Translations under genes and position numbers: made by a program
Notes under the pieces: model-generated
Told to the model about the DNA's origin: nothing
The model's input: only the letters and a program-made list of their open reading frames with translations
Databases searched by the model: none
In this document: positions 7,376 through 58,611 of the stretch, piece by piece
Layout of the letters: each line of letters starts with the position of its first letter
How positions within the stretch are numbered: position 1 is the first letter of the stretch
Source: a virus
IMG/VR virus record: IMGVR_UViG_3300028392_000038
Location: 51,973 to 115,972 of that record
Length of the DNA stretch: 64,000 nt
Direction: 5' to 3' (one strand)

Positions 7376-7786
7376 ATGGAAGAGCTGGATAGATTTTTAC
7401 ATTTCTTATTAGAGAATATAGATGATAGAAGAGTGCATATTTCTAAGAAAGTAAAATATGGGTTCCAACATTTCTATCTAACATTTAATATAGACCAGGT
7501 AGATAAAGATGGACAAAAGTTGTATCACAATAACATACTATCTATTACAATAGATAACAGAAATAATTGTATTGATATAGATTCAGAGATAAATGGTAAG
7601 TCTATTGTTATAGAAGATGAAGAGTTTGTTAGAAGGTGGTCTACTATCTTAGATGAATTTTTAAGTAGAGAGATTACTCAAAAGATATCTGGTATTATAG
7701 ATATAACTCTAAGCTCTTGTGAGAATAAGAATTTACACAGAGATTATAAAATGAAAAAAATATTTAAAGACGATGAATCTATATAA
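7376..7786 (+). CDS. hypothetical protein with C-terminal RDYKMKKIF tag variant
   Basis: 136-aa ORF overlapping the next gene. Confidence 0.65.
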   Translation: MEELDRFLHFLLENIDDRRVHISKKVKYGFQHFYLTFNIDQVDKDGQKLYHNNILSITIDNRNNCIDIDSEINGKSIVIEDEEFVRRWSTILDEFLSREITQKISGIIDITLSSCENKNLHRDYKMKKIFKDDESI

Positions 7787-8267
7787 TCAAGAAGAAGTAG
7801 ATAGAATTAATAAAGTTAAAGATACCAATGATAAATTAGAAGATTTCTTTAATGGAAAAAGAGGAGAGTGGAATAAAATTGTTGAACCACTTTTTAAAGT
7901 TCTCACTACCGATTTATCTAATCCTTCAAATTCTAAACACATATTAGAAGCTCAGTCTTTAGCTCTAACACATAGACAACAGATTAATGAACAGATTAAT
8001 TTCTTCTTAAATAAAAGAAGTAAGGAGACTACTAAGATTAAGAAATTAAGACAAGATAAGTTTGTATTTTATGCTACTGGATTTGGAATCAAAACAAACT
8101 TGGGTGAAAAAGGAATTCTTATTGACGGTCACTTAGCAGAAAATGATAGATCATTGGAACTAATAGAATCTTATATTGAATTCCTAAGAGATACTGTGAG
8201 AAATTTAGAAAGTTTATCTTATTCAATTAAGAATATGATTGAGTTATTGAATTACTTAGGTAAGTAA
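7773..8267 (+). CDS. UvsY-like recombination mediator
   Basis: Helical protein ending IEFLRDTVRNLESLSYSIKNMIE, like the UvsY C-terminus. Confidence 0.55.
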   Translation: MNLYNQEEVDRINKVKDTNDKLEDFFNGKRGEWNKIVEPLFKVLTTDLSNPSNSKHILEAQSLALTHRQQINEQINFFLNKRSKETTKIKKLRQDKFVFYATGFGIKTNLGEKGILIDGHLAENDRSLELIESYIEFLRDTVRNLESLSYSIKNMIELLNYLGK

Positions 8268-9394
8268 TGCTTAACTTCTATTCCAAGCTTTTTAAGTTCT
8301 TCATGTCCTTGGCAACAATCATCACAAAGTTCATCTTTACCATATGAACCAGGATAAACTAAATTCATGTATAATTTACCGTTGCAACGATCACAAGGAT
8401 CACATTCACCTGTTACAGAATGTAACATATAATCACCCTCACTTGGTAGGTTAGAAAGTAGTTTTTTCTTTTCATCTAAGAAACACATAGTATCAATAAA
8501 TGGATAATGTTTAAAGTCACCATCTAATTTAACAGTTACCTCACCAAAGACATCTTTGCCCTTATATACAAATAAAACATTGTTTTCAATATATGAGTTC
8601 ATTTTCTTTTTATATAGGAACCCATTATCTTCAGCGAATTTCTTAAATCTTAATTCATCAGAATCACGATTAACATAAACTCTGTCCATGAAATACTTAG
8701 CCTCACAAGGAGAACTTTTTAATTTCCAAACAATAGCTCTTCCGTGTATCATATCATCTTTATCTACATAAATAAGCAATTGAACCTTTGATTCATTTTC
8801 TGTATAAATATCAAATGTTTTCTTACTCTCATCCGACATACAAGATCCACCTAAACTACCAGATCTACTAAAGTATTTTTTCTCATTATAATATTTTGCA
8901 ATATCAGATCCTTTAACTAATTTGAATGACATAGAAGTATCTATTTTAGATGCTTTGAAAGCATTAACAAAGTTTTCTATATCTTTATCTTTAACATCAT
9001 CAAGATCACCACTATCATCATTGATTAAATCAACAAGATATTTAATTATCTTTCCAATTTTAACCTCGTTTCTACCTTTCATTGTATATGGTAGGGAAGC
9101 ATCATCATCCGGATCCCAATCTTCAGGAACCTTAGTATTCATTATAAATGATAACTTATCATTTGAATCAGTTAGATCAAAATAGTTTTGTTTAACATCA
9201 GAATCATCAAAATAATTCTGATCATCAATAATATCAATAATAGCTTGTGATATTTCACCTACTTTACCTTTTTCTTTTGAAAGGTTTTGTAACTTAAACA
9301 TGAAATCGGATGACCCATAAATTTCAGCTTCTAAAAGTAATAATAAATTACTCTTGAAACTCTCTAACAAAAAACTATTGTATTTCTTAATCAT
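8252..9394 (-). CDS. conserved phage protein (SCM / GRAxxW / MDRxY family) with N-terminal tag
   Basis: GSCMS, GRAIVWKL, FMDRVY, YPFIDT shared with 23219-25108; C-terminal CxxC pairs; N-terminus MIKKYNSFLLE. Confidence 0.7.
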   Translation of the reverse strand: MIKKYNSFLLESFKSNLLLLLEAEIYGSSDFMFKLQNLSKEKGKVGEISQAIIDIIDDQNYFDDSDVKQNYFDLTDSNDKLSFIMNTKVPEDWDPDDDASLPYTMKGRNEVKIGKIIKYLVDLINDDSGDLDDVKDKDIENFVNAFKASKIDTSMSFKLVKGSDIAKYYNEKKYFSRSGSLGGSCMSDESKKTFDIYTENESKVQLLIYVDKDDMIHGRAIVWKLKSSPCEAKYFMDRVYVNRDSDELRFKKFAEDNGFLYKKKMNSYIENNVLFVYKGKDVFGEVTVKLDGDFKHYPFIDTMCFLDEKKKLLSNLPSEGDYMLHSVTGECDPCDRCNGKLYMNLVYPGSYGKDELCDDCCQGHEELKKLGIEVKHYLPK

Positions 9395-9443
9395 ATAACT
9401 AAATAATTTTGATTACATATATATAAAAAATTAAATATCATAA

Positions 9444-9818
9444 ATGAAATTACCAAAATTTATTCTTAAAAAAGATTGGAATATAGAACCTGAATTTGCC
9501 GGTATAAAAAATAAAATACTAATATTTAGTAAAGGTAAAGTATTTGAGGCGGATGATAATGGTGATTACATTATTGAATCACTTTATGGTAGAATGGTAT
9601 CAGATGTTGAAGGTATGAAATCAGCTAATGATAATGGTGATATTCTTTTTGATATAATAGAAGAAAAGAAAGATATTGAAATTAAAGTTGAAGAAGTATC
9701 TGATAATGATGAAGAAATAATTAAAAACTGGAGGATCCAATTAGATGTTAAGACTTCAAGAAAGAAGTTAAAGGAAATTGAAAAAATCATCAATGAAAAA
9801 GTAAAAGAAATATTATAA
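9444..9818 (+). CDS. hypothetical protein
   Basis: 124-aa ORF. Confidence 0.65.
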   Translation: MKLPKFILKKDWNIEPEFAGIKNKILIFSKGKVFEADDNGDYIIESLYGRMVSDVEGMKSANDNGDILFDIIEEKKDIEIKVEEVSDNDEEIIKNWRIQLDVKTSRKKLKEIEKIINEKVKEIL

Positions 9819-9826
9819 TTTATCCG

Positions 9827-9834
9827 TATATTTG
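9827..9834 (+). promoter_or_regulatory. Bacteroidota-type -7 promoter element TATATTTG
   Basis: Matches TAnnTTTG; 3 nt before ATG at 9838. Confidence 0.65.
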
Positions 9835-9837
9835 TAT

Positions 9838-10188
9838 ATGAATCTATCTCTTATATTTATAAGTATATTACCAGTAGTAATAATCATCTATCTATTTTTT
9901 AAAATGTATTTAAATAGTAGAAAGAGAGAACAGCAATTAGATATAATAGACCATTGGTCAGAGTTTAATCAAACATTAATAGATTGGGGAGAAGAAATAT
10001 CAGATATTCATATGAAACATGAGTATACACACTTTTGTGCGTCCGAAATTTCTAGAGGATTTAAAAATGAGGATAACCATGAATGGGATAAGAGAATTAG
10101 AAAAGAAGTGATTGATAAGTTTATAAATCACATACCTTCACTTAAACAAGAAGTAAGAGAAGAAAAAATAAACAAAATATTAAAATAA
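9838..10188 (+). CDS. membrane-anchored protein with C-terminal REEKINKIL tag
   Basis: N-terminal TM helix; ATG at 9838 preferred over TTG at 9832. Confidence 0.7.
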   Translation: MNLSLIFISILPVVIIIYLFFKMYLNSRKREQQLDIIDHWSEFNQTLIDWGEEISDIHMKHEYTHFCASEISRGFKNEDNHEWDKRIRKEVIDKFINHIPSLKQEVREEKINKILK

Positions 10189-12486: not shown

Positions 12487-13407
12487 TTAATCTTTTTTTC
12501 CAAACATTCTTTGGTAGGCTTTAGTTGCTGCGGACTTTTTAGTTTTAACTCTTTTCCCTTCACCACCTTTACCAGATGTGTAATCAGCATCCCAATCTTT
12601 TTTGTATTCTTTCTTGCCAACAAATCTATCAATTTCTTTTTTCATTTTACCTGGATTTTTAGTTAGATACTTACCAGGTATTTTACGACCCTTATATCTC
12701 TGTGACTTAACTCGTTCTTCTACAATCTCTTCATCTTCTTTCCAATTAAAATTTCTCCTTAAATAATTGAACGCCGTATCATAAGCATTTAAAACTTGCA
12801 TTGGCTCAGTTCCATATTTACTCATAATTTTATCACCAACTCTTATAACCTCTTTAATTACCCATTCTTTCCAAGACTTATCATCTTCTCCAAATAAAAT
12901 AGTATCAATTACTAAATCTATTGTTTCTTTATCAAACATGGAAAGATCTTTCTCCATATCTTCTATAATACCATCGGTATCTGCCGTGTTATCCATAACA
13001 CCAATTTTAGAAAAACTTACAATTCTTTTAATGACATCTTCAGCCTCTGATTCTTTTATAGAAGAACTATACTCACTTGATTCAGAAACACCTAATATCA
13101 TTTGAATATCTTTTTCAATCATATCTAACCCTTCATCAATTGATTCAACATCTTCTGTAAAATCTATAGTTTCACCAACTACTTTTGTTAGTATTAAATC
13201 ATCTATGTCAAACTCATATCTAATTGATAACTCACCTGTTGAAAAGTTAACTAGTAACTGATGGTCATTTTTATTTTCCCACTCATAGATAAAATTCTGA
13301 CCAGATGAAATACCTTCAACAAGGTCTTTTAATTCTTGCATTTTAACATCTATGATGCTATCATTCTCAACAAACTCTCTTATAAATTGATCCCACTTTT
13401 TTATCAT
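12487..13407 (-). CDS. multi-module protein with N-terminal tag and basic C-terminal module
   Basis: Probable start MIKKWDQFIRE at 13407, just after TAATATATA; ends KTKKSAATKAYQRMFG. Confidence 0.65.
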   Translation of the reverse strand: MIKKWDQFIREFVENDSIIDVKMQELKDLVEGISSGQNFIYEWENKNDHQLLVNFSTGELSIRYEFDIDDLILTKVVGETIDFTEDVESIDEGLDMIEKDIQMILGVSESSEYSSSIKESEAEDVIKRIVSFSKIGVMDNTADTDGIIEDMEKDLSMFDKETIDLVIDTILFGEDDKSWKEWVIKEVIRVGDKIMSKYGTEPMQVLNAYDTAFNYLRRNFNWKEDEEIVEERVKSQRYKGRKIPGKYLTKNPGKMKKEIDRFVGKKEYKKDWDADYTSGKGGEGKRVKTKKSAATKAYQRMFGKKD

Positions 13408-14278: not shown

Positions 14279-14692
14279 ATGAATTCAGAAGACGCTTTTT
14301 ACAAAAATAAATTTTTATTAGTAGAACACAATGCTCAATTATTATATGATGATTCCAACCACAATATCAAAGAAGTAAGAAGAATAAGATTAATATATGA
14401 TCACAGATCATGTATCATGTATCTTGATGAGAGATTTAATGATTTAGAATTTCGAGGATTCAGCGGCAGGTTGAGCCCCAATAAAACAGTTGAGATATTT
14501 TTTAAAAATAGAGAAGATAAATTAATTGACTATCTAAAAGATAAATATCAAGAATTAAAAAATTCAGACTTTAGATATAAAAGAGGTGATGGATATGAAG
14601 GTGATAAAACATTATACTTAGAAGACTTTATAGAATATCTAAAAATAGAAAACAGAGATAAAAAAATTGAAAAAATATTAGAAAATGAATAG
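14279..14692 (+). CDS. hypothetical early protein with C-terminal RDKKIEKIL tag
   Basis: 137-aa ORF. Confidence 0.7.
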   Translation: MNSEDAFYKNKFLLVEHNAQLLYDDSNHNIKEVRRIRLIYDHRSCIMYLDERFNDLEFRGFSGRLSPNKTVEIFFKNREDKLIDYLKDKYQELKNSDFRYKRGDGYEGDKTLYLEDFIEYLKIENRDKKIEKILENE

Positions 14693-17965: not shown

Positions 17966-18196
17966 ATGAAAAATGATGAATTATATCCAGAATTTATTAC
18001 TTATTTAGATAGTCAAGTAAATGAAGGAAGAATTAGTAGAAATAAGTTTGCTCTTTTGAAAATAAGTCATTCTTATTTTCAAACATTTAAAACAAAGTTT
18101 GAAATAGATGAACTTTTTAGAGAAAGAGTTATAAAACTACATAAATCCGAGATAAGGGATAGAAAAATTGATGATATATTAGATGATATTGATTGA
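17966..18196 (+). CDS. small protein with C-terminal RDRKIDDIL tag
   Basis: 76-aa ORF. Confidence 0.7.
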   Translation: MKNDELYPEFITYLDSQVNEGRISRNKFALLKISHSYFQTFKTKFEIDELFRERVIKLHKSEIRDRKIDDILDDID

Positions 18197-18575
18197 TGAA
18201 ACAATTATAGATAATATAGAGGTTGGTTTCTATGACGGAATGGATATTGATAAACTTTTAAATCATCCAAAAGATGGATCTAATGGTTTTATTTACTGTT
18301 TCATAGAGAATTGGATAAATGAAATTAAATCATATAATAGACAAAGAAAAATATCATCAGTGATTGATGGTGTTGTATATGAGGAATTTGAATGGGATAA
18401 TATAAATAATAATTATATATGTGTTTATCAAACAGAGGGTATGTTGATTAAAGATGTTTACGAGACAATAAGAAAGAAGTTAGAAATAAACCGATTAGAT
18501 ATTCAACCTTGGATTCCAGTTAGTGGAATAGACAAAGGAGCAATTAAGATAGAAAATAAAAAAATAGATGATTAG
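18183..18575 (+). CDS. hypothetical protein (internal RQRKISSVI tag variant)
   Basis: 130-aa ORF overlapping the previous gene. Confidence 0.65.
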   Translation: MILIDETIIDNIEVGFYDGMDIDKLLNHPKDGSNGFIYCFIENWINEIKSYNRQRKISSVIDGVVYEEFEWDNINNNYICVYQTEGMLIKDVYETIRKKLEINRLDIQPWIPVSGIDKGAIKIENKKIDD

Positions 18576-22993: not shown

Positions 22994-23236
22994 ATGAATT
23001 TAAAAGAAGTGCACGAAAGTAAAAGAGATGTTAGAGATTCTGATATTCCAAATGAATGGAAAGAAAGTTTTAATCAATTTATGATGGGTCAGACCTGTCA
23101 AGCAGAAACTAATGAAGATGGTTCTATAAAAGAATTCATTTACTACTTTCACGACTTCAGTAGATGGTATTATATGAATCAGAAGGTAATTGAAAGAGAT
23201 ATTAAAATCAATGATGTGTTAAAAAGTAAGAAATAA
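22994..23236 (+). CDS. small early protein with C-terminal RDIKINDVL tag
   Basis: 80-aa ORF. Confidence 0.7.
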   Translation: MNLKEVHESKRDVRDSDIPNEWKESFNQFMMGQTCQAETNEDGSIKEFIYYFHDFSRWYYMNQKVIERDIKINDVLKSKK

Positions 23237-26835: not shown

Positions 26836-26954
26836 ATAAATAGTTATTTTTTTGTATATATTAATTATCAAATATTAAAATTCGACAGTACTAATATCTT
26901 TTATATATTAAACTTTTACTCCTATTATTTATAAAAAACAAAAACAATCAAAGA

Positions 26955-27632
26955 ATGAACGATTTTAGAAAATTTGCAAATGATAAAATGGTGAGCACCA
27001 CTTACCTTAATGACTACTTTAAAAAACTAAATATAAGAAATAACACAACTCAATTAATTGAAAGTAACGGAATGTCTGTAGATATATTCTCAAAGCTTCT
27101 GGATGATAGAATAATATTTCTATGTACTGAAATAGATTCAGATATATGTAATATCATTAAAGCTCAGTTAATGTATCTTGAGACACAAAATGATGATGAT
27201 ATTAAAATCTATATTGATTCTCCTGGTGGATCTGTTTATAGTGGATTAGGTTTATTAGATGTTATGGATTATGTTAGTCCAGATATCATTACAGTCAATA
27301 CGGGACTAGCTGCGTCAATGGCAGCAGTTATATTATGTTCTGGTTCAAAAGGTAAAAGAAGAGCTCTTAGAAGAAGTAGAACAATGATTCACCAGCCGAT
27401 GACTGGATTTGGATCTTATGCTCAAGCAACTGATATAGAAATTGAATCAAGAGAGATTAACTCTCTAAAAAGAGAACTTTATGAAATTATATCAGAGAAG
27501 ACCGGACAAAACTACGATAAGGTATTTAAGGATGGTGATAGAGACTATTGGATGTCCGCCCAAGATGCTAAGAAATATGGAATGGTTGATGAGATAATAC
27601 AAAAGAGAGATAGTAAAAAGACCAAAAAATAA
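26955..27632 (+). CDS. clpP: ATP-dependent Clp protease proteolytic subunit
   Basis: DIFSKLLDDRIIFL, YIDSPGG, GLAASMA (Ser), MIHQP (His), DRDYWMSAQDA (Asp). Confidence 0.95.
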   Translation: MNDFRKFANDKMVSTTYLNDYFKKLNIRNNTTQLIESNGMSVDIFSKLLDDRIIFLCTEIDSDICNIIKAQLMYLETQNDDDIKIYIDSPGGSVYSGLGLLDVMDYVSPDIITVNTGLAASMAAVILCSGSKGKRRALRRSRTMIHQPMTGFGSYAQATDIEIESREINSLKRELYEIISEKTGQNYDKVFKDGDRDYWMSAQDAKKYGMVDEIIQKRDSKKTKK

Positions 27633-28636: not shown

Positions 28637-29149
28637 CTATTCTCCTAATAAAAAATATTGGAACTTACTAGATATCATATCTAATTCATATTCCAAATCT
28701 TTTTTATCAATTATTTTAATAATATCACTATTAGGACAAAATACATAATCTTCTGATTGGAGTTCTGCCATAAACTCTACTTTCTTTTCAATAGGTAGTC
28801 GCTTAAACTTTCCAAATACCTTATGAAATTTGGGAAATAAATCTTTGGAAAGAAAAACTTCCTCATCATATTCTTGTCCTAATCTCATAGGTCCAATTCC
28901 TCTTACTCTTATTTGATTAGCAATCTCATTATTAGATAAGTTTCTAACCGAAATTGGAATTCTTGTTAGTTTATTTAACATAGGATAAAGTGACCATGAA
29001 CTAGCACCTCTTTTAATCACATCAGATACATTAGGATAATCTATCCATCTTTCAGGACTAATTTGTGAATTAGCTGAGCTAAGATTCAATAGGTATTTAT
29101 CATTATCATCAGCAGATTCAAATATTTTGTATTTTTTTAAGTATTTCAC
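28637..29149 (-). CDS. hypothetical protein with N-terminal tag
   Basis: (GTG) MKYLKKYKIFES. Confidence 0.7.
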   Translation of the reverse strand: MKYLKKYKIFESADDNDKYLLNLSSANSQISPERWIDYPNVSDVIKRGASSWSLYPMLNKLTRIPISVRNLSNNEIANQIRVRGIGPMRLGQEYDEEVFLSKDLFPKFHKVFGKFKRLPIEKKVEFMAELQSEDYVFCPNSDIIKIIDKKDLEYELDMISSKFQYFLLGE

Positions 29150-30352: not shown

Positions 30353-31084
30353 ATGAAATTTAGATATGATAAAGAAACTGAAGAAATAGTTGTTACGTCA
30401 GCAACTAGAATTGAATACCACCAAGTTGGTCTTTGGTTAACTCGTCATGTCAAAGGATATAGATATATGCCAGCATTTAAAATGGGTGTTTGGAATGGAC
30501 AACAAACCTATTTCAAAAATGGTAGAGTAAATATAGGTCTTTGGAAAGAAGCTATGAGGGGATGTAAAGAAATTGATGCTCCTTTTATTTTAGAAAATAA
30601 AGAAGACTTTCCACTAAACAAAGATGTAACATTAGAAAAGGTTAAAAACTTCTGTAATGAATTCTTTAAGGATCATAAAGTTAAAACTAAAGATGGTCAA
30701 TGGGTTCCTTTTACACCCTATGAACATCAAATAGAATCAGCATTTAAAATACTTAAAAATAGATTCTGTATGGCAGAGGTTGCTACATCTGGTGGTAAGT
30801 CACTAATCATATCTATAGTAATGTTTTATACATTAAAGAATATGAATCCAGATGCTAAGTTTCTTATCATAGTTCCATCAATTACTTTAGTTACTCAGTT
30901 CTATGATGATTTATTAAAAAATTTCCACGGAGAGAACAATATTACTAATATATATAATAATTATTATTTGGAGATAGAATTGGTTGATAATACTATTTTA
31001 AAATTAAAACCAAATGATAAAATAATAACAAAAAATAGAGGAGAAATTTTTGCAAAAGATTTAACTGAGCTAGACGAAATATGA
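30353..31084 (+). CDS. uvsW: UvsW-like SF2 helicase, N-terminal half, with intein-like tail
   Basis: Q-motif PYEHQ, Walker A ATSGGKS, motif Ia IVPSITLVTQ; last 40 aa resemble the end of an IntN fragment. Confidence 0.85.
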   Translation: MKFRYDKETEEIVVTSATRIEYHQVGLWLTRHVKGYRYMPAFKMGVWNGQQTYFKNGRVNIGLWKEAMRGCKEIDAPFILENKEDFPLNKDVTLEKVKNFCNEFFKDHKVKTKDGQWVPFTPYEHQIESAFKILKNRFCMAEVATSGGKSLIISIVMFYTLKNMNPDAKFLIIVPSITLVTQFYDDLLKNFHGENNITNIYNNYYLEIELVDNTILKLKPNDKIITKNRGEIFAKDLTELDEI

Positions 31085-32322
31085 GAAAACTGGAGAAAAA
31101 TGAGATTTTAGAAAAATTCAAAGAAAAGCACAGTAATAATTATGACTACTCAAAGTTTGAGTATGTCGGTTATCACAAAAAAACAATAATAATATGTAAA
31201 ATACATGGTGGATTTTTACAAACTCCATCTAAGCATATAATAGGACAAGGATGTAAAATATGTAATATTAAATATTCTATTGGTGAGATAAAAGATAAGT
31301 TATATAAAATACACGGAGATAAATATGATTTTATTTTTGATGATGATGTAATAGATACTAGATCGAAAATAAAAATAAAATGTAATCATGGAATAAAAGA
31401 ATTACAAATACGATCTTTATTACAAGGACAAGGATGTATTTCTTGTAAGGGTAAAAAATGGACAGAGTTTGACCTGAAGAATTATCTAATTAAAATTCAT
31501 AGTGAATTAGTATATGAAGATGGATTTATGAATGGTCAATTTCTAAAAGTTATTTGTAAAGAACATGGTGATTTTAATATTAAAAAGGATAGACATTTAA
31601 GTGGACAGGGTTGTCCAAAATGTTCTAAAAGAAAAAAATATGACCAAACATTTTTTATAGATTCTATTAGTAAAAAATTTAATAATTTAAGTTATGATAA
31701 TTGTATTTTTATTTCTTTTAATAAAAAGGTTATAATAACTTGTACAAAACATGGAGATTTTGAAACGTATCCTAGTTATCTATTAAATGGTAATGGTTGT
31801 AAAATATGTAGAAATGAAAATAATTCACATTCCAAAGAATATTTTTTACAAAAATGTTTAGAAAGACATCCAGAAATAGATCATAGTATTTTAGAATATA
31901 ATGGTGTTAATAATAATATTAAATTGATTTGTAAGAAACATGGTATATTTGAACAAAAGGCGGGGTATTATTTGAATTATAGCAAAGGTTGTAAATATTG
32001 TAATGAGACAAAGGGAGAGAAACAAATTAGAATTTATTTAGAAAATAACAACCTAAAATATAAACAACAATATAAAAATCATGGATTTATTTTTGATTTT
32101 TATATACCAGATTACAATACATATATAGAGTTTAATGGTAGACAACATTATGAACCTATAGAATTTTTTGGTGGTGTTAAGTCATATAATAAACAATTAT
32201 CAAAAGATAAATTAAAAGATCAAATTTTAAAAAATGAGAATATAAAATTGATAAAAATAGGATATTGGCAAATAAATAAAGTTGATTGTATTTTAAAAAA
32301 AGAATTAATAAATGAAAATTAA
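31081..32322 (+). mobile_element. homing endonuclease gene fracturing the helicase (five Zn repeats plus Vsr-like domain)
   Basis: Repeated CKxHG...GxGCxxC; FDFYIPDYNTYIEFNGRQHY; overlaps both helicase halves. Confidence 0.85.
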
Positions 32323-33313
32323 AAGAATATCTAAAATAAAAATAGATGATGAAATAAGAGTAGAAGAAATAATGTCAGATAGACCAAGAAAATTCTCAGG
32401 TACTGAAAATCCTAACTTTTATATTGGCACTTATCAATCTTTAGAAAAGTGGCCTAAAACATTTTTTCAGCAATTTCACACGGTGGCTTGTGATGAGGCA
32501 CATGGTTCAAAAAGTAAGACAATAACATCTATTCTAGAAAATACTTTTAAACATGCTTATTCAAGATTTGGAGTCTCTGGTACTTTTCCGGAAGATGATA
32601 CTTGTGAAATACTAACCATACAATCTGTATTAGGTCCAAAGATTACAGAGGTTTCCGCAAATGAATTAAAAGAAAAGGGTATCATCACACCAATGGATAT
32701 TAAAGTTGTGATAATGAATCATAATGACTCTGAATTTGCTGAAAGAATTAATATAATAAAGAAAAGTGGAAATGGTAAAGACGCATTTGATTTAGAAAAA
32801 GATTATATTCATATCTCTGAAAGAAGATTAGACTTCATTAAAAAGATAGTAGATAAATGTGACTCAAATACATTACTACTATTTCATACAATTGAATATG
32901 GTCAAAGTATTTTTAATAAGTTACAGAAAGAATGCTCTGATAAGGAATTTTATTATATTGATGGTGAGATATCTGGTAAGAAAAGAGAAGTTATTAAAAA
33001 AGAAATGGATAAAACCGATGGTAAAACCAAAGTATTATGTGCGAGTTTTGGGACATTATCTACAGGTGTCTCGATTAATGCCATCTTCAATGTTATATTT
33101 GCTGATTCATTTAAGTCAGAACAAATTATTATACAATCAATAGGTCGTGCTCTTCGTTTACATGATGATAAAAAGAAAGCTAATATATTTGACTTAGTTG
33201 ATGTTTTCTCATCAGGTGAGATGTCTAATATTTTGTACAGACATTTTAAAGAAAGAGAGAAGTTTTATATTAAAAGACAGTATCCTTATAAAATTACTAA
33301 AATTAATCTATAA
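32312..33313 (+). CDS. uvsW: UvsW-like SF2 helicase, C-terminal half
   Basis: GTYQSL, CDEAH (motif II), SGT (III), STGVSI (V), QSIGRALR (VI); starts MKIKRISKIK. Confidence 0.88.
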   Translation: MKIKRISKIKIDDEIRVEEIMSDRPRKFSGTENPNFYIGTYQSLEKWPKTFFQQFHTVACDEAHGSKSKTITSILENTFKHAYSRFGVSGTFPEDDTCEILTIQSVLGPKITEVSANELKEKGIITPMDIKVVIMNHNDSEFAERINIIKKSGNGKDAFDLEKDYIHISERRLDFIKKIVDKCDSNTLLLFHTIEYGQSIFNKLQKECSDKEFYYIDGEISGKKREVIKKEMDKTDGKTKVLCASFGTLSTGVSINAIFNVIFADSFKSEQIIIQSIGRALRLHDDKKKANIFDLVDVFSSGEMSNILYRHFKEREKFYIKRQYPYKITKINL

Positions 33314-44967: not shown

Positions 44968-46596
44968 GTGATAATTAAGAAATTTAACGATTGGTCGCCT
45001 GTTAATGAAGAGGCATCTCCTAGACTCCCAGTTAGTGAAGAGTTCTGGACTAGAAAAGGCAAAAGTAAGAAAGTTGCCTTATATACTCATGATGATATGG
45101 ATGGAATATTCTGTGCTATTGAGATGAAAAAGTGGTTACTTAACAAAGGTTTCACAATTGAAAAATACGGTATTCTTAATTATTCAGAAGGTTGGAAATA
45201 TACAACTTTAGACCCTACCCTAATTAATATAGTATTAGACTTTGCAAATATGCCTGGTGATGAAAGAGATGAACAGATTGATTATTATTTAGATCATCAT
45301 GGTTTATTCTCAGCAGAAGATTTAGAAAAATATAAAAGTTCTCCAGTTCAAAAGAAAAAAACAAACTCAGCTTATGAAGCAGTTTGTCAAGCACTGGGAG
45401 TACCACAAGATGAATTAACTTTATCAGTTATTGATATGATTGACTCAGCTAGATATCAAGATTATGGTGTTAGTTGGCAAAGACTACTTGACTTTAATTT
45501 ATCAGATATTAAGAAGTCAGACAAAACAAGATTAGAATTTGGAGCGGCTTTCAATCAATTCTTAAAAAGAGGAGATACTAAGACTTTGATATCTGTTATT
45601 CACAATTGTAAAGACGCTTCTATCTATTCAATATTCAATACAATGAAACAAGTTTATGGTGAGCATAATGTTCATACTGGTTATAGAAAAGGACAACCTA
45701 AAGATTTTGAAGAAGATTCAAGATGGAGATTGGCTACAATGCAACAAAGAACTAGAGGAAAAGGAACTAAAAAGATTTATAACACTCAAGAAGAATTCTT
45801 AAAGGATTTTCAATTTGGTGGATTAATAAGATTAGATGGTTATGTTTTAATTGGTGAATTAGCTTTCATACCAACAGGAACTTGGGCAAATGCTTTAAGA
45901 GCAAGAACAATCATTGAAAAGGATTTCAATGATGGTTTAATATCTAAAGAACCTAAATTTATATTATTACAATATGGTGGAACTCTACAAGTATGTTCTT
46001 ATAAAAAGATAGCTGAAACAGAAGAACTTCCTACATTAAAAGGTGGTGGATTTGTTGATGATTTAGGTAAGTATATGACCGGTCTACTAGATAATTTCAA
46101 ATTACATTTAGGATATTATGATCCAGATACATCAATTGGGCAAGATGAAATAACTGTTTCTGGTGGACACGGTGGTATTGGTTCTATCTCTAATGTATTT
46201 GGAACTTGTGATGTTGATCCATATAAAGGATTTAGATTTATTGATATTTTCAAAAATAAGATTATCTCAGATTTATCAGGGGTTAAATTAAATATGGGGT
46301 TAAAATGGAGTGAACCATCAGAAGGAAAACAAACTGAACCAGCTGTTGATAACAAAGTTATACCAACTGAAAATGTAACTAAACTTGATAAATATGGTAA
46401 AGCTATTAAGACCGAAGAAAGCTATGAATATCAATTAGTTAATAAAGAAGGTAGACCAACTACAGTTTCTAAAGAAGATTTTATAAAAGCAGGATCTACT
46501 AAAGCAATGAAAACTGATAGAAAATCTTTAATGACTATTGATCACAATAATAAGAAAGTGATTGCTAAGTTTGAAGGTTTTAAGTATAAAGGTTAA
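44968..46596 (+). CDS. DHH-family phosphoesterase with N- and C-terminal tags
   Basis: THDDMDG, VLDF, LDHH, SGGHGG; N-terminus MIIKKFNDW..VNE; C-terminus AKFEGFKYKG. Confidence 0.75.
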   Translation: MIIKKFNDWSPVNEEASPRLPVSEEFWTRKGKSKKVALYTHDDMDGIFCAIEMKKWLLNKGFTIEKYGILNYSEGWKYTTLDPTLINIVLDFANMPGDERDEQIDYYLDHHGLFSAEDLEKYKSSPVQKKKTNSAYEAVCQALGVPQDELTLSVIDMIDSARYQDYGVSWQRLLDFNLSDIKKSDKTRLEFGAAFNQFLKRGDTKTLISVIHNCKDASIYSIFNTMKQVYGEHNVHTGYRKGQPKDFEEDSRWRLATMQQRTRGKGTKKIYNTQEEFLKDFQFGGLIRLDGYVLIGELAFIPTGTWANALRARTIIEKDFNDGLISKEPKFILLQYGGTLQVCSYKKIAETEELPTLKGGGFVDDLGKYMTGLLDNFKLHLGYYDPDTSIGQDEITVSGGHGGIGSISNVFGTCDVDPYKGFRFIDIFKNKIISDLSGVKLNMGLKWSEPSEGKQTEPAVDNKVIPTENVTKLDKYGKAIKTEESYEYQLVNKEGRPTTVSKEDFIKAGSTKAMKTDRKSLMTIDHNNKKVIAKFEGFKYKG

Positions 46597-46985
46597 TTGA
46601 TAATTGTTATATCAACTTTAGTTTCTGGAATTATTCTCCCTTCTAATATAGAATCTATTTTTAAATCTCTAGCGATTTGTTTATTATAATAAACCGATAT
46701 TTGATCAGGAGACATATGCATGTCTAAATAGCATTCATATCCAAAGATAGTTCCAACATTCCATAAACCATCAGGTTCCGATTCTTTTATTTTTCTATTT
46801 AAAAATGCGGGGTGGTGTTCAAGTATATTATAAACAGTCATTGGAATAATCATATAATTATATTTAATCTCACAAGACTCATTTAACTTATTTATATCTT
46901 TCATTATATACCCAGCCTTCATTCTGTCTAAATCATATAAACTATCTACCTGACCTAATGGCATTCTACTTAAATCAATTTCCAT
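46593..46985 (-). CDS. hypothetical protein with RDLKIDSIL tag
   Basis: 130-aa ORF. Confidence 0.65.
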   Translation of the reverse strand: MEIDLSRMPLGQVDSLYDLDRMKAGYIMKDINKLNESCEIKYNYMIIPMTVYNILEHHPAFLNRKIKESEPDGLWNVGTIFGYECYLDMHMSPDQISVYYNKQIARDLKIDSILEGRIIPETKVDITIIN

Positions 46986-47697
46986 CTAATATCTGATTAA
47001 TTTTATCTTGTCTTATTTTAGAAACATTTTTTATAATAATTTTATATGAGTTATAATTACAATCATATAATTTATAATCTAAAGTATGCAACCATTCAAT
47101 TTCATTATATGGTTTATCACCATTAATTTCATTTTGAGGTATTATTTTATAATCCATATTTTGTACGGAATAAACAAGACTTTGAAATGATTTATCAGTT
47201 ACATATAAAACAGATTCACCATCTTCTTCTTCTATTAGCGGAGAATAAAAAATATCTAAATGTAATCCAATAAATCTCTCTATATTATAGAAGTATCCAG
47301 GAAATGCTCTGTTTATTTCTGGTTTTTTAGTAATTCCAAATAGTTTAGATCCTTTTTTAGATGCAAAAATATAAAGAGGTTTAATACCCATCTCAGTTAA
47401 CTTATCTAAAATATTCCCACCAAAAACTGTACTCTTTGTAATAGACTCTTCAGGAATTATGATTTCTTTAGACTTGGAAATCATGTTTTTAATACTCTCA
47501 TTATATATCTTAATAATAGTGGTAATAATGAAAGTGGGTGATGTGAGAGGTGTTGTTTTTATTTCTGAGTAAGATTCATCAGTTGATGAAATAGCATCAC
47601 CATCATATAGATATGTAATTCCCATTAGATTTAACTCTAATGTTTTTTTATACTCATTAAAAGATTCTCTCACATATATTGGTATAATAATAATCAT
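46975..47697 (-). CDS. hypothetical protein with C-terminal RQDKINQIL tag
   Basis: 240-aa ORF. Confidence 0.65.
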   Translation of the reverse strand: MIIIIPIYVRESFNEYKKTLELNLMGITYLYDGDAISSTDESYSEIKTTPLTSPTFIITTIIKIYNESIKNMISKSKEIIIPEESITKSTVFGGNILDKLTEMGIKPLYIFASKKGSKLFGITKKPEINRAFPGYFYNIERFIGLHLDIFYSPLIEEEDGESVLYVTDKSFQSLVYSVQNMDYKIIPQNEINGDKPYNEIEWLHTLDYKLYDCNYNSYKIIIKNVSKIRQDKINQILDGN

Positions 47698-50243: not shown

Positions 50244-50948
50244 ATGAATAAATTAATAATTTTATTATCATCTCTACTCTTATCAATATCAATTAATGCT
50301 CAAAAAGAAATCTCTTTAGATAATAGTTTATCAGGTAGTTTAAACCAAGGTAAATCCGGAAATATAATTGGTCTAAACTTTACAGGCAACAATTATTTTG
50401 ACTTTGGGAAACATATAGCATTAGATTTAGGCACAAACTACAACATACAATACATACCGGAACTTTCACAAAATGAACTAATTCAAAAAGCCAACTTTGG
50501 TTATAATAAAGAACACTGGGATTTATTCACAACTTATCAATATAACTACTCATTAATAAGAGAAATTCAAGCAGATAACTGGCTAGGTATTGGCGGTGGA
50601 TTTAAAGAAAAGTTTAGTTGGGGTAAAGCTTCTTTATCATACGCTTTTCTTTATCAGAACACAGATTATATGGTTGATCCTAATACAAATAAATTAAGAC
50701 ACTCTATCAGAGTTAAAATAAAAATAGAAAAGAAATTATTTGGATTTTCAACTGAATATTATTATCAACCAAATATTAAAGACTTCAATGATTGTATAAT
50801 TTATGGTACTACTAAATTGACTTTATTTCCTGGTAAACCTCTTAACTTTATTATGCAAGATCAGATGAACTTCAGAAGCACCAGTGATGTTAAAATGATG
50901 AACAATTTAACTTTTGGTGTTGCTTATAAATTTAATAAAAAAATGTAA
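50244..50948 (+). CDS. outer-membrane beta-barrel protein (DUF481-like)
   Basis: Sec signal ending INA-Q; alternating beta strands; terminal strand LTFGVAYKF. Confidence 0.7.
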   Translation: MNKLIILLSSLLLSISINAQKEISLDNSLSGSLNQGKSGNIIGLNFTGNNYFDFGKHIALDLGTNYNIQYIPELSQNELIQKANFGYNKEHWDLFTTYQYNYSLIREIQADNWLGIGGGFKEKFSWGKASLSYAFLYQNTDYMVDPNTNKLRHSIRVKIKIEKKLFGFSTEYYYQPNIKDFNDCIIYGTTKLTLFPGKPLNFIMQDQMNFRSTSDVKMMNNLTFGVAYKFNKKM

Positions 50949-51040
50949 TTTTTTACTAAACAAAGCAATATAAATTCGATATATAGAAAGATAATAATTT
51001 TTGAGTAGGATTAATTTCTTACTCAAAAAAAAAATTCTAT

Positions 51041-55944: not shown

Positions 55945-56166
55945 TTAATTTAGAATTTTATCTATTTTTTCATCTCTTCTTGATTGTAACCAGTCTTCAT
56001 ATCTTCCTTTACTAACAAACTCACCACCTCCGTTATTAAATGTAAGGTGGATATCAATACCTTCAGATCCGGAAAAATTGTTTAAGGTGTAATAAAGAAC
56101 ATTTATATCCTCTTTATATCTTAGAGATTCGTGTGAAAATTTATTTAACAATTCCAAAGTTATCAT
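55945..56166 (-). CDS. small protein with C-terminal RDEKIDKIL tag
   Basis: 73-aa ORF. Confidence 0.7.
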   Translation of the reverse strand: MITLELLNKFSHESLRYKEDINVLYYTLNNFSGSEGIDIHLTFNNGGGEFVSKGRYEDWLQSRRDEKIDKILN

Positions 56167-56504
56167 TATCTCACTATTTTATTTAATTTGACATCTCTAT
56201 CTCTTCTTAGTATCTCACTATTAAAAGGTATCCAATTCTCATCAAATCTATACTTATAAATTTTATCATCATCTTGCCAAATTACATAAGAAGAAAAATT
56301 AACTTGATTACCAAGATAATCTATACCTGTAAAGGCTCCTTTATGTATATTTTTACCAAAACCGTCTCTTTTAAGTTCGATTTCTGATATTATATCTAAT
56401 AGTTGATTAAAGTCTATATCAATTTCTATAATCTCTTCCCCGGTGGTTGATATATAATCACCTGATTTAAGAAACTTGGCTTTAATTATTTTTTCGATTT
56501 TCAT
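56166..56504 (-). CDS. small protein with C-terminal RDVKLNKIV tag
   Basis: 112-aa ORF. Confidence 0.7.
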   Translation of the reverse strand: MKIEKIIKAKFLKSGDYISTTGEEIIEIDIDFNQLLDIISEIELKRDGFGKNIHKGAFTGIDYLGNQVNFSSYVIWQDDDKIYKYRFDENWIPFNSEILRRDRDVKLNKIVR

Positions 56505-56505
56505 A

Positions 56506-56968
56506 CTATCTCATTATTGTTTGTAATCTATCCGGTCCAACAGATACTCTTGTTATTGGGCAATTTGTTTCTAATTGAATAAAAGCAATATAATCTTTAG
56601 CTTCTTTTGGAAGTTCTTCAAATACTTTACAATCAGAAATATCTTTATTCCAACCTTTCAACTCAACATAAATTGGTTCAATTGGAACTGAAACATCAAA
56701 TGGAATAGTATCTTTATAAAAATCACCATCAACATTATAACCAACACAAACTTTGACAGTCTCAAACTCACTTAGAATGTCTAATTTCATTATATTAAGT
56801 TCAGTGACACCATTTATCATACAAGAGTATTTAAGAGCAGGTAAGTCAAGCCAACCACATCTGCGAGGTCTTCCTGTTGTAGCACCAAACTCAGAACCAA
56901 TCTTTCTCATTTTCTCGCCAATTTCATTATCCAATTCAGTTGGAAAAGGATAATACGTCTACTTTCAT
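56506..56968 (-). pseudogene. purA: adenylosuccinate synthetase with large internal deletion and frameshift
   Basis: ATG at 56968 gives MKVDVL, joined out of frame to PFPTEL...EFGATTGRPRRCGWLD...KLDIL...SVGPDR. Confidence 0.85.
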
Positions 56969-57364
56969 TTATTTTATTATTTTTTCTAATTTATAATTTC
57001 TATCCCATTGAGTCATTAGACTCAGAAGGTGTTCATTTACAAATGAGTCCTCTAAAGCTCTATCTTTATTTAATTCAAACTCTTCAATAACAATTTCTCT
57101 AAAGTTCAATATATCATTATATTTAGCATGTCGGTGTGAGTATTCTTCTGACTCTTCCCATTCATCACCATATTCTAAATCTGTTTCACTTGGAACCCAG
57201 TCTTTTGGTTTGTTGAAAACACTATACATCTTTTCTTCATAGAAGTCTTTCCATTTTTTAGCAACATCTTCTGCTAATTTTTTATCAGTAAATAGACCAA
57301 TAATTTTCCAGCTTGTTGAATCGTAGTTCTCGAAGTGAGAACGAACTATATAAATACTATCCAT
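56969..57364 (-). CDS. hypothetical protein with C-terminal RNYKLEKII tag
   Basis: 131-aa ORF. Confidence 0.7.
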   Translation of the reverse strand: MDSIYIVRSHFENYDSTSWKIIGLFTDKKLAEDVAKKWKDFYEEKMYSVFNKPKDWVPSETDLEYGDEWEESEEYSHRHAKYNDILNFREIVIEEFELNKDRALEDSFVNEHLLSLMTQWDRNYKLEKIIK

Positions 57365-57854
57365 TTAGTAAATCATCTAAGTTAGAATCTCTGATAACAC
57401 CTGATTCTTTCATAACATCATCCCATATTTCTATGAAATTCTCAGAGTTAATTTTCTTAGTAATATCTTTAATATCATCAATTAAGTCATTATACATATT
57501 ATCATCTTTATAAAATGATCTTTTGTTGTATCCGTGATTTACACTAAACCCATCTTTAAATACCTCAATTCTTAAATAGTTTTCTTCATTAAATAGTTGA
57601 TTCGGTTTTAACTTACTACTCTTGATTAAAGTAAGGTCTTCAGTGGATATAGATATTCTAGAATCACTTACATCAAATCTTAAATTGTTTTTATAATTTG
57701 ATAATGATAAAATCATTTTTTTGAATTTAGAACTAACCTCCGAATCATATTCACACCAAGTATACTCATCTATTTTTTCAGCCATTGGTGAATTATAATT
57801 CCTAATTTCATCAGTAATTATTTTAGCTATTTTTTTTAAATCTTTCTTTTTCAT
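57357..57854 (-). CDS. hypothetical protein with C-terminal RDSNLDDLL tag
   Basis: 165-aa ORF. Confidence 0.7.
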   Translation of the reverse strand: MKKKDLKKIAKIITDEIRNYNSPMAEKIDEYTWCEYDSEVSSKFKKMILSLSNYKNNLRFDVSDSRISISTEDLTLIKSSKLKPNQLFNEENYLRIEVFKDGFSVNHGYNKRSFYKDDNMYNDLIDDIKDITKKINSENFIEIWDDVMKESGVIRDSNLDDLLNG

Positions 57855-58303
57855 TTCTTTTCAATTGGGTTATAGTTATAGGTAACTATAATTTTATATC
57901 TTACTTTATACTTAAGTCTAAAAATATTAAACCTAATCCAATATCTTTTTATATCAATGGTAATTAAAACATCTTTGAACACTATATTTTTCTTTTTCAA
58001 GAATTTTATATAACTAGTCATAAAATGATTTACATCTTCATCATATATATAATCATTTAATAAAAGAGTGTCTATATAACTTGACCTAATAAACTTATTA
58101 TCAGTTTTATCTAAAGTGATAAAGATATCACTAAAAGATTGTAATTCACAATCACAGTTTGATTTTGATTCCATTTTTTTAGAACCTAAGCCTTCAAAAT
58201 AATGATATAAACCATCTTCAATACTCATAGCAAAATAACTATCACTGTTTTGTGAAATAAGATTTGTAGTTATAAGGGAGAGGATAATAATTAGTTTTTT
58301 CAT
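57851..58303 (-). CDS. putative secreted protein
   Basis: Signal-like MKKLIIILSLITTNLIS-Q. Confidence 0.55.
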   Translation of the reverse strand: MKKLIIILSLITTNLISQNSDSYFAMSIEDGLYHYFEGLGSKKMESKSNCDCELQSFSDIFITLDKTDNKFIRSSYIDTLLLNDYIYDEDVNHFMTSYIKFLKKKNIVFKDVLITIDIKRYWIRFNIFRLKYKVRYKIIVTYNYNPIEKK

Positions 58304-58611
58304 AATAATTTTTCTAAGTTATAATTTCTTAATTCAATTTTTGACCATTGTATAAATTTCGGATCAAATCCATATATCTTATTCAATTCTTGATACAAAG
58401 TTGTAAAATCTAAATCTTTTAATTTATGACAAGCAAACAAATTAACACCACCGAATGTAAATTCAACCCATTGTTCTTGTTCGCCGTGTTTATATCTAAC
58501 TATATCAACTTCAACCTTACCCATACTAAATCCTTTATATGAAGTTCCTAATGCTTGAACTTTGAAAAGCCCAGATGTTATTAAATAATCTTGTAATTCT
58601 TTCTGACTCAT
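58300..58611 (-). CDS. hypothetical protein with C-terminal RNYNLEKLL tag
   Basis: 103-aa ORF. Confidence 0.7.
   Translation of the reverse strand: MSQKELQDYLITSGLFKVQALGTSYKGFSMGKVEVDIVRYKHGEQEQWVEFTFGGVNLFACHKLKDLDFTTLYQELNKIYGFDPKFIQWSKIELRNYNLEKLL

Follow-up and report, generated by a model that had tools for sequence, protein, structure and literature searches.

In this giant freshwater phage, about one protein in ten carries the same short tag, usually at the C terminus; among its 630-kb relatives the share rises to as much as one in six. The tag is predicted to be a self-contained 13-residue capped amphipathic α-helix, joined in most cases to the rest of the protein via a flexible linker. 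The preliminary description of the window (the whole stretch of 64,000 nucleotides analyzed here) listed 13 instances, all of which are present in the sequence in the ORFs named, at their ends except for the internal RQRKISSVI, and put the number of carriers at about 12. The observation is genuine, but its scale is far larger than first noted: within a clade of megaphages, the proteins that have the tag number in the hundreds. No description of this shared C-terminal helix was found in the literature that could be searched.

The pattern R[DENQ].[KN][ILM]..[ILVM][LIVF] has 13 matches in the window, 11 of which end no more than 6 residues from the C terminus, compared to 0.035 C-terminal matches and 0.45 matches anywhere in residue shuffles. 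The 116-kb contig contains 16 matches (~0.04 C-terminal matches are expected), and its non-selected reading frames contain none. When scored against a tail-derived profile, the 16 carriers in the contig reach 26 - 38 bits and every other ORF stays under 4 bits. The tag is at the end of 154 of the 975 ORFs of LR745206 and 151 of the 1000 ORFs of LR756502, whereas shuffles of these genomes give 3 - 7 matches. It was not found in LR756500 or in two cultured Flavobacteriia phages, and four AT-rich control phage genomes have 0 - 1 C-terminal matches. ORF calling followed a plain longest-ORF rule instead of a gene finder.

The conserved core of the tag is [ST]-K-x-E-h-R-[DEN]-x-K-[IL]-x-x-[IL]-[LI], after which come 0 - 7 polar residues. 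The element spans ~13 - 15 residues (-5 to +8 relative to the Arg at position 0) rather than the nine originally proposed, and the information per column is below 0.35 bit upstream of position -5. The N-terminal end forms an N-capping box, [ST]-K-x-E, and the tag terminates in a Gly, Asn or Asp cap or at the end of the chain. Projection on a helical wheel places K(-4), R(0), K(+3) and the aliphatic residues at +4, +7 and +8 on a single face. There are only three aliphatic positions, and none that is Gln or aromatic. The consensus, the capping and the structure predictions all agree with the short amphipathic helix that had been suggested. The spacer between the tag and the stop codon is 0 - 7 residues long in ~80% of cases and consists mostly of D, K, N and E. 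An alternative, non-polar ending, ...LGI-COOH, occurs alongside ...IL-x in both LR745206 and LR756502, and the two forms substitute for each other on orthologous bodies.

Position 0 is Arg in 187 of 190 tags and never Lys, as counted with a scoring matrix that was seeded with Arg-only instances; position +1 is acidic in 142 of 190. Allowing for this seeding, an Arg that is almost never replaced, even by Lys, argues for specific recognition and not for general amphipathicity. MinD and FtsA also have a short amphipathic helix of 8 - 13 residues at the extreme C terminus, which targets them to the membrane. In those helices the pattern is conserved and not the residues, whereas the tag has an invariant Arg, then an acidic residue, and three aliphatic positions. 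A membrane-targeting helix of this type, in which Lys and Arg would exchange freely and the hydrophobic face would be strong, was rejected on these features, subject to the Arg-only seeding of the matrix.

Six ORFs with the tag lie on the forward strand of the window. The 136-residue carrier at 7376..7786 has a weak form, RDYKMKKIF followed by KDDESI (12.7 bits); its orthologue in LR745206 ends in RDYQMEKIFKKDERI. The carrier at 9832..10188 (118 residues) has the tag REEKINKIL-K (26.6 bits), and its orthologue ends in RDRQLKKILK. The carrier at 14279..14692 (137 residues, RDKKIEKIL-ENE) has no Pfam or PHROG family match. The next one, at 17966..18196 (76 residues, RDRKIDDIL-DDID, 29.5 bits), has a 60% identical orthologue with RDQKIDDIF. 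The 130-residue ORF at 18183..18575 has RQRKISSVI internally, at residues 53 - 61, a position that is conserved in LR756502 and LR745206. The carrier at 22994..23236 (80 residues, RDIKINDVL-KSKK) has a convergent downstream neighbor.

The other seven carriers are on the reverse strand. At 46593..46985 (130 residues), RDLKIDSIL is followed by 16 residues and the downstream neighbor is again convergent; an orthologue has RDLKIESIL at the equivalent position. The carrier at 46975..47697 (240 residues) has the tag RQDKINQIL-DGN. The remaining five belong to one operon, running from 59096 to 55945, which is headed by a TATATTTG promoter region of the host Bacteroidota -7 type (59097..59149, reverse strand) and whose first gene, 58608-59096, is in the class with a host-type promoter (class H). 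These five are found at 58300..58611 (103 residues, RNYNLEKLL with no residues after it), 57357..57854 (165 residues, RDSNLDDLL-NG), 56969..57364 (131 residues, DUF7336 (PF24024), RNYKLEKII-K), 56166..56504 (112 residues, RDVKLNKIV-R) and 55945..56166 (73 residues, RDEKIDKIL-N).

The bodies of the carriers are unrelated at the BLASTP level, as the preliminary description had maintained. Outside the tag, the contig carriers have no match to each other better than E 0.004, and 153 carrier bodies of LR745206 form 151 clusters. A full-length paralogous family was therefore rejected at this level, as similarity does not extend beyond the tag. Pfam or PHROG matches among the 108 carriers scanned are limited to ~3 helicases and a few singletons.

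Selection acts on the protein, because synonymous codons at the conserved positions (R0, D1, K3, I/L4, I/L7 and L8) follow genome-wide usage. Orthologues that are only 30 - 60% identical still retain the tag while their bodies diverge. The location at gene ends, where boundary sequences are expected in mosaic phages, could suggest a DNA or RNA element, such as a recombination linker, a promoter or a terminator, that is translated by chance. Against this, apart from the codon usage, the x positions vary freely, the other frames of the contig are devoid of matches, and the motif contains neither a TAnnTTTG nor an ATATATA box; such an origin is extremely improbable.

The DUF7336 protein gives the clearest view of a tag and its body. 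Its final 10 residues are the same in all of the 23 homologues aligned while the body varies, and most of 79 clusters at 50% identity retain the tag. In the AF2 model the body has a pLDDT of 85 - 94 and the tail helix (residues 111 - 130) a block-mean pLDDT of 44 - 63. The most conserved segment is thus the least confidently placed. As in generic short linear docking motifs, the flanks are less conserved, the carriers are unrelated and the tail lies outside the confidently predicted body. The ORF at 18183..18575 is different: R53, K56 and S59 are invariant across 27 homologues, and within a long predicted helix (residues 41 - 62) the tag is the segment predicted best. In some proteins, therefore, the tag may be an ordinary structural helix. 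Altogether, 11 orthologue groups conserve the tag at internal positions, including a 555-residue helicase.

These observations bear on whether the tag could work without any reader, as a capped helix that aids the folding or solubility of small, fast-evolving proteins and that was spread by descent or module shuffling. The tag is a textbook capped helix, it belongs to a comparatively well predicted helix in 18183..18575, and internal copies close domains in two-unit proteins. However, independent roles leave the near-invariant Arg and the switching of positions +1, +3 and +7 across whole genomes unexplained, the invariant DUF7336 tail is poorly placed in its model, and no DNA-level identity points to recent shuffling. 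A purely structural module is, in our estimate, quite improbable.

The switching is seen when lineages are compared. LR756504 has ~100 copies of the variant R-K-x-[KI]-I-x-[ED]-L-L-COOH, and R...I..L occurs in 111 of its 884 ORFs (2.5 are expected). LR756501 has ~25 copies of R-T-K-L-I-D-K-M-L. Position +1 is thus D, K or T, position +3 is K, K/I or L, and position +7 also switches. Such a concerted change is as expected for a motif with a common reader. Mutual binding of the tags would likewise give a uniform tag in each genome and concerted change between genomes: tags could associate in antiparallel fashion, in short pairs or bundles of helices, and the tagged early proteins would co-assemble into a body or condensate that needs no separate reader. 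The charges suit such pairing, with an acid at +1 and often Lys at +6 in LR745206, and the reverse, Lys at +1 and an acid at +5/+6, in LR756504. Furthermore, the invariant Arg could be matched by the carboxylate at the partner's C terminus or by its acidic cap, which would account for the terminal position of the tag. Nevertheless, 13 residues with three aliphatic positions are short for a stable helix-helix interface, the ...IL-x and ...LGI-COOH forms coexist and interchange on orthologous bodies, and charge covariation within sequences is weak or absent. Self-association is accordingly unlikely.

The carriers are associated with one class of promoter. Under a crude operon rule, 7 of the 13 C-terminal carriers of the contig, five of them in the single operon described above, are in operons with the host-type TAnnTTTG promoter, presumably early; the preliminary figure of eight was thus roughly right. 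The C-tag genes of LR745206 are in TAnnTTTG operons in 27% of cases and in ATATATA operons in 14%, compared to 2% and 60% for genes with an N-terminal tag (Fisher p of 7e-5 and 1.6e-9, respectively). With the crude rule, neither promoter motif is seen for over half of the carrier operons, and 'early' therefore describes a tendency and not a rule. The contig repeats this trend, and its tail/baseplate operon is of the ATATATA type. The two tags never occur on the same protein, either in the contig or in LR745206 (154 x 47), in accord with the preliminary description.

The T4 capsid-targeting sequence and the cargo-loading peptides of encapsulins are terminal peptides that send diverse cargo to one assembly, and the C-terminal tag resembles them in being a possible address on diverse proteins. 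In this phage, the N-terminal tag, which is tied to a late-type promoter, seems to be the capsid-targeting or cargo-type system. Since the C-terminal tag is carried by a different set of proteins, for the most part with host-type promoters, loading into the capsid through it is unlikely. A capsid-targeting peptide, whose carriers would be co-expressed with structural genes, was rejected because the C-tag genes are depleted from the structural-type ATATATA operons (14% vs 30%) and enriched in TAnnTTTG operons.

The phage encodes its own ClpP (26955..27632, forward strand; Pfam CLP_protease, 5e-67), which is preceded by the late-type motif TTATATATT. The tag might be a C-terminal degron, the third option of the preliminary description, read directly by a protease, either the phage ClpC-like/ClpP or an AAA+ enzyme of the host, that shortens the life of early proteins. 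The late-type motif of ClpP, set beside mostly early carriers, is consistent with this, as are the non-polar last residues of the ...LGI-COOH form. A ClpC-like unfoldase, with AAA, UVR motif, AAA_2 and D2-small domains and a GVGF loop where the ClpP-docking loop belongs, is encoded in the tagged LR756502, LR745206, LR756501 and LR756504, and was not found in LR756500, MaF61 or PTm1. However, ClpP, which serves here as context, does not track the tag, being present in the tag-free LR756500 and missing from the tagged LR756501, and the link between them suggested earlier is weak. In all, 55 genes match the presence and absence of the tag across seven genomes, which are phylogenetically non-independent, so that the ~50 others match as well as the unfoldase and candidate readers are not singled out.

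In the ssrA/SspB system and other C-terminal degrons of ClpX and ClpA (reviewed in PMC8138137; for ssrA recognition, PMC10638403), a short C-terminal peptide likewise marks many proteins for one AAA+ machine, and the adaptor can read the upstream part of ssrA while the pore takes the end. Unlike ssrA, which is added by tmRNA, the tag is gene-encoded, helical and capped rather than unstructured, has a variable polar spacer and also occurs internally. An ssrA-like degron would have a fixed distance to the free C terminus and a non-polar end, and only the ...LGI-COOH form ends non-polar. A simple free-C-terminus degron was rejected as unlikely because of the 0 - 7 residue spacer and the 11 orthologue groups with internal tags, and direct reading by a protease is on the whole improbable.

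The position of the tag, so close to the stop codon, might also indicate a nascent-chain signal that acts in the ribosome at termination, for example in re-initiation on an overlapping gene, possibly with phage translation factors. A co-directional downstream gene overlaps the carrier in 41 of 66 cases (among other small ORFs the figure is 125 of 317), and an RF-1-domain protein, EF-G and ribosomal protein S21 are among the genes that match the phyletic pattern. Nevertheless, the neighbor is convergent in 14 of 80 carriers (those ending at 23236 and 46593 are examples in the window) and a gap of more than 20 nt follows 15, the tag does not keep a constant distance from the stop codon, and 11 orthologue groups conserve it internally, that of the large helicase included. 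This mechanism is very unlikely.

Several known systems resemble the tag in part. The C-terminal tails of T4 gp43, gp33 and gp55 bind the clamp gp45, and T7 gp2.5 and gp4 have acidic tails; in those sets, too, one short C-terminal peptide recurs on unrelated phage proteins and docks on one hub. Those tails are on 3 - 5 replication or transcription proteins and are acidic or SLDFL-like, whereas the tag, a basic/aliphatic capped helix with an invariant Arg, is on 10 - 16% of ORFs, nearly all small ORFans. The clamp-binding consensus is QL[SD]LF, or the SLDFL type in T4. The tag matches neither and lacks Gln and aromatic residues, and the scanned carriers other than the ~3 helicases are mostly without a family; a clamp-binding tail, which would be expected on proteins of replication, repair or late transcription, was rejected. 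In poxviruses, ankyrin proteins have a PRANC/F-box-like C-terminal module of ~40 residues that plugs into the eukaryotic SCF ligase. As the phage may have done, a large virus has multiplied variable target-binding proteins with one small module for a degradation hub, but the ankyrin bodies are paralogous and those of the tag carriers are not. The ChAD extensions of antitoxins in toxin-antitoxin-chaperone systems are also short, C-terminal and read by a dedicated partner, a chaperone (bioRxiv 10.1101/2024.02.24.581848). There, each system has one antitoxin, an adjacent SecB-like reader and no conserved Arg-helix, unlike the hundreds of carriers here, which have no adjacent reader gene. A search for a protein with a fused tag and reader found none.

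The preliminary proposal of a shared docking or address motif agrees with the unrelated, host-promoter-enriched carriers, the selection on the protein and the concerted change; from these we infer binding to a partner. The reading that we prefer, with somewhat short of an even chance, is a docking helix on early proteins, with a single partner that reads it in trans and co-evolves with it. The K/R/aliphatic face of the tag would dock into this common partner, which would thereby handle the early proteome as one group, and since one partner would read every copy, the tag would shift genome-wide whenever the partner changed. Our first choice for its role would be that early proteins are passed on, at a set time, to proteostasis machinery encoded by the phage, with the ClpC-like unfoldase together with ClpP, Hsp70, or the M16 and M28 peptidases as candidate readers; Hsp70, the unfoldase and both peptidases are among the genes that match the pattern of the tag.

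In a bolder form, to which we give a small probability, the whole early proteome, 100 - 150 proteins per genome, would be labeled, and a single phage-encoded proteostasis machine, either Hsp70 or the ClpC-like unfoldase working with ClpP, would seize, hold or destroy the label-bearers at the early-to-late switch. T4 shuts off its early genes at the mRNA level. If true, labeling of the early proteome would be the protein-level counterpart of this shut-off, with label and reader co-evolving between phage lineages.

The C-terminal tag (C-tag) is a predicted helix of about 13 residues, [ST]-K-x-E-h-R-[DEN]-x-K-[IL]-x-x-[IL]-[LI], which ends otherwise unrelated small proteins, the carriers; its positions are numbered from the arginine as 0. 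The contig (115,972 bp, 28% G+C), of which the window constitutes bases 51,973-115,972, is about half complete by the CheckV estimate. A simple longest-ORF, low-overlap rule gave 132 ORFs in the contig and 91 in the window, and all 13 instances of the tag named in the preliminary description are found in called ORFs. The regular expression R[DENQ].[KN][ILM]..[ILVM][LIVF] matches 13 window ORFs. In 11 of them the match lies six residues or fewer from the end, compared to 0.035 C-terminal matches in shuffled proteins and 0.07 in shuffled last-30 residues. This loose expression has 16 matches in the called ORFs of the entire contig and none in its unselected reading frames, and a profile of the tails separates 16 contig carriers (26-38 bits) from every other ORF (below 4 bits). 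The description of the carrier bodies as unrelated was borne out, as without their tails the contig carriers have no BLASTP similarity to each other better than E = 0.004. A Pfam/PHROG scan of 10 contig carriers one by one gave no significant family; a later search made the carrier at 56969-57364 of the window a member of DUF7336 (PF24024).

The 1022-aa tail-associated protein of the contig has its nearest relatives in two uncultured megaphages, LR756502 (642 kb) and LR745206 (635 kb), and by the same protein LR756501/3/4 and LR756500 are remoter relatives. LR756502 and LR745206, sampled in a French lake and in the Japanese subsurface, have been grouped among megaphages of more than 630 kb in a report that mentions no motif (PMC9723777). 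The carriers, put at about 12 in the preliminary description, do exist, but their number had been greatly underestimated: LR745206 and LR756502 each hold more than 150 C-terminal ones. The loose expression has 98 matches in the whole LR745206 genome (975 ORFs), 81 of them at most seven residues from the end. An iterated position matrix of 15 columns, with a cut-off of 11 bits, finds 190 sites in 187 LR745206 ORFs, 154 of them C-terminal (shuffles give 3-7), and 195 sites, 151 C-terminal, among the 1000 ORFs of LR756502. The median carrier is about 107 aa long. The stricter regular expression alone places the tag in 71 of the 514 LR745206 ORFs of at most 150 aa, and the matrix yields about twice as many carriers overall. 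The 153 C-terminal carrier bodies of LR745206 form 151 BLASTP clusters, and the sole family matches in a scan of 108 carriers were those of about three helicases and a few singletons. Full-length paralogy is thus ruled out at the BLASTP level, both for the contig carriers and for the LR745206 clusters.

When the sites are aligned in register, the information is restricted to positions -5 to +8. The pattern reads [ST]-K-x-E-(I/L/Y)-R-[DEN]-x-K-[IL]-[NDKE]-x-[ILV]-[LI] and is followed by 0-7 residues, mostly D, K, N or E, and most frequently by one. The [ST]-x-x-E box and the trailing G, N or D are classical helix caps. On a helical wheel one face holds K(-4), R(0), K(+3) and the aliphatic residues +4, +7 and +8. 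Position 0 is Arg in 187 of 190 sites and Lys in none, the matrix having been seeded with Arg, and covariation of charge within the tag is weak. A MAFFT alignment of the 13 window tails had hinted at a further block, E-[DN]-[WF]-I, before the tag; in 81 in-register instances the positions upstream of -5 are uninformative, and the idea of a more extended invariant domain at the C-terminus was rejected.

LR745206 has 32 copies and LR756502 has 39 copies of a second form, R-[DEN]-x-K-L-x-x-L-G-[ILV]-COOH, which is absent from the contig and from LR756504. It can stand in for the form ending in IL on a body that is orthologous (P0172). Genes of 70-105 aa in tandem arrays bear this second form (LR745206 374589-376406, 582867-583446 and 597241-606011).

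The codons at the six conserved positions match genome-wide usage: among Arg codons AGA has a share of 0.69 in the tag vs 0.76 in the genome, and ATA/ATT/ATC are used at 0.49/0.40/0.11 vs 0.52/0.38/0.09. Together with the empty alternative reading frames, this codon test argues against an element read in DNA, and a nucleic-acid signal of any kind is hardly credible. Selection on the tag acts at the protein level. The tag is kept between contig carriers and LR745206 orthologues that share 30-60% identity, in some cases in forms outside the expression, such as RDYQMEKIF and RDRQLKKIL. The final ten residues do not vary among 23 DUF7336 homologues with identities of 63-91%. Homologues of DUF7336 occur on contigs as long as 630 kb. 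DUF7336 comprises 79 clusters at 50% identity; 45 of 66 representatives of at least 100 aa fit a crude generic pattern, and most of those that miss it have near-variants. The family model evidently takes in the tag as its C-terminal end, the tag thus being hidden in a 'domain of unknown function'.

Variants in two of the remoter relatives came to light with a refined matrix and with patterns counted de novo. The LR756504 form, [T]-[KL]-x-E-[YHI]-R-K-x-[KI]-I-x-[ED]-L-L, stands exactly at the C-terminus; when gapped triplets were counted de novo over the final 15 residues, R...I..L appeared in 111 of 884 ORFs, where 2.5 are expected, and RK..I in 100. About 25 small ORFs of LR756501, in two arrays, end in E-[FW]-K-N-x-K-R-T-K-L-[IM]-D-K-M-L-N. 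The tag is absent from LR756500, Flavobacterium phage MaF61 and Tenacibaculum phage PTm1, where the matrix has 0-1 C-terminal matches and the generic pattern is at or near background (7 MaF61 ORFs vs 1.3 expected). The pattern R...h..hh in the last 17 residues is found in 9.8% of contig ORFs, 14.1% in LR756502, 14.9% in LR745206, 10.8% in LR756504, 2.4% in LR756501 and 0.6% in LR756500. These variants have a common scaffold, consisting of K(-4), R(0), aliphatic residues at +4, +7 and +8, and N or D at +5, on which +1, +3 and +7 change jointly in all carriers of a genome. In LR756500 (W05; for example at 12631, 13446, 14298 and 198758) some 14 proteins, 130-370 aa long and mostly 250-300 aa, end in NADDFGF[FL]DN, a sequence quite unlike the C-tag. 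Nearly all of them also carry the N-tag, a separate N-terminal tag (MKYLKxFxxF), and they look like a paralogous family.

These properties point, at not quite even odds, to a short docking motif that would be bound in trans by one co-evolving partner. The carriers are unrelated and the tag is under stronger protein-level purifying selection than the bodies; its helix is capped and exposed, with one conserved basic-aliphatic face; and it is uniform within a genome while changing in concert between lineages. Association of the tags with each other would account for the same genome-wide uniformity, and is the less likely alternative.

An AlphaFold2 model of DUF7336, calculated with 23 sequences, has a body with pLDDT of 85-94, then a weak linker that leads to a helix, residues 111-130, with block-mean pLDDT of 44-63. 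The most conserved segment is accordingly the least confidently placed in the model; a Foldseek search with the body found no relative. The model of the window ORF 18183-18575 is weak overall (mean 66), and its internal tag lies inside helix 41-62, the best-scored part. A structural role that involves no reader agrees with fewer of the facts than docking, and is rather improbable.

Internal tags occupy the same position in LR756502 and LR745206 in 11 orthologue groups, and for three of these in the contig as well. Among the groups are a 555-aa helicase, tagged at residue 246, window ORF 18183-18575, and a two-unit protein at contig 50362-51039 that has a tag at the end of each unit. A Rosetta-stone search of the segments behind the internal tags found no fused reader, since the domains that follow are unrelated to one another and differ between groups. 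At 30353-33313 of the window a helicase is interrupted by a 413-aa ORF. The intact protein of LR745206 (120830-122440, 536 aa) carries the complete tag, as RDKKIDHIL, in the loop (residues 198-216) where the split lies.

The sequences before LR745206 operon starts are enriched in two motifs: TAnnTTTG, the Bacteroidota -7 promoter type, and [AT]ATATATA. TAnnTTTG operons contain 27% of C-tag genes, 2% of N-tag genes and 13% of other genes; for ATATATA operons the proportions are 14%, 60% and 30%. The two tag classes differ in both respects (Fisher test, p = 7e-5 for TAnnTTTG and 1.6e-9 for ATATATA). Of the 13 C-tag genes of the contig, 7 are in TAnnTTTG operons; of its 16 N-tag genes, 11 are in operons with ATATATA only. 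The proposed link to host-type promoters holds as a tendency and not as a rule. The [AT]ATATATA motif precedes 17 of 20 first-in-operon N-tag genes of LR745206, and the ATATATA type is also found at the tail/baseplate operon starting at 42619. From these promoter associations, the C-tag tends to mark probably early genes, and the N-tag marks genes co-regulated with structural ones. The promoter class of the N-tag fits its reading as a capsid-cargo signal; that of the C-tag argues against capsid loading.

As had been proposed, the two tags are on separate proteins, no ORF of LR745206 or the contig having both. N-tag ORFs of the window lie between 248 and 63298, for example at 248-835, 28637-29149 and 59980-60972. 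The N-tag is more widespread among the phages than the C-tag, with 82 profile matches in LR756502, 64 in LR745206, 27 in LR756504, 17 in LR756500 and one in LR756501. Its presence in LR756500 without the C-tag, and the different promoter types, speak against the tags working as a pair.

With regard to the partner, 55 LR745206 proteins have tblastn relatives in LR756502, LR756504 and LR756501 and none in LR756500, MaF61 or PTm1. They include Hsp70 (473636-475510), a 701-aa ClpC-like unfoldase (423224-425329) with AAA, UVR motif, AAA_2, D2-small and a GVGF loop at residue 552 and lacking a Clp_N domain, one insulinase-type M16 peptidase (310766-311875), three M28-like peptidases, EF-G, an RF-1-domain protein, S21, NusG and Glu/Gln-tRNA synthetases. 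The M28-like peptidases also have relatives in the contig. The phyletic profile of seven related genomes points weakly to the unfoldase, Hsp70, the peptidases and others as candidate readers only, and the reader may equally be supplied by the host. The suggested connection to ClpP failed by distribution, as ClpP is present in the tagless LR756500 and missing from the tagged LR756501. Upstream of the phage ClpP gene the sequence TTATATATT (window 26860-26954) is a late-type motif, not TAnnTTTG.

Degrons and ChAD elements are known kinds of terminal signal, and a handful of replication proteins in T4 and T7 have docking tails in common at their C-termini. A literature search found no paper describing the C-tag motif and no description of any tag on at least one tenth of a phage proteome. 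The tag is unlikely to be purely a degron. A role in the nascent chain at termination agrees with fewer facts than docking and is very improbable. Neither default ARAGORN nor Rfam detected a tmRNA in the contig, and low-threshold ARAGORN calls looked spurious. Outside the window, at about 10,020-10,080 of the contig, one frame reads …AALQNNMILVEDLATV, then two stops. Relatedness of the C-tag to a phage tmRNA tag was rejected, as the frame that closes with …NNMILVEDLATV near position 10,050 of the contig shows no similarity to it.

If the tag is a docking motif, its first-choice function would be to let the phage proteostasis machinery handle early proteins collectively, whether to hold, hand over or destroy them. 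Discovery of the reader would turn the lineage variants, with D, K or T at +1, into a natural specificity series. The tag could serve as a 13-residue pull-down peptide, as an early-gene marker for uncultured megaphages and possibly as a portable tag. Huge phages possess small uncharacterized genes by the hundred. A label that places 10-16% of the proteome in a single class, overrepresented behind host-type promoters, separate from the virion-cargo class and with one proposed handling partner, would be a first organizing principle for this phage dark matter.
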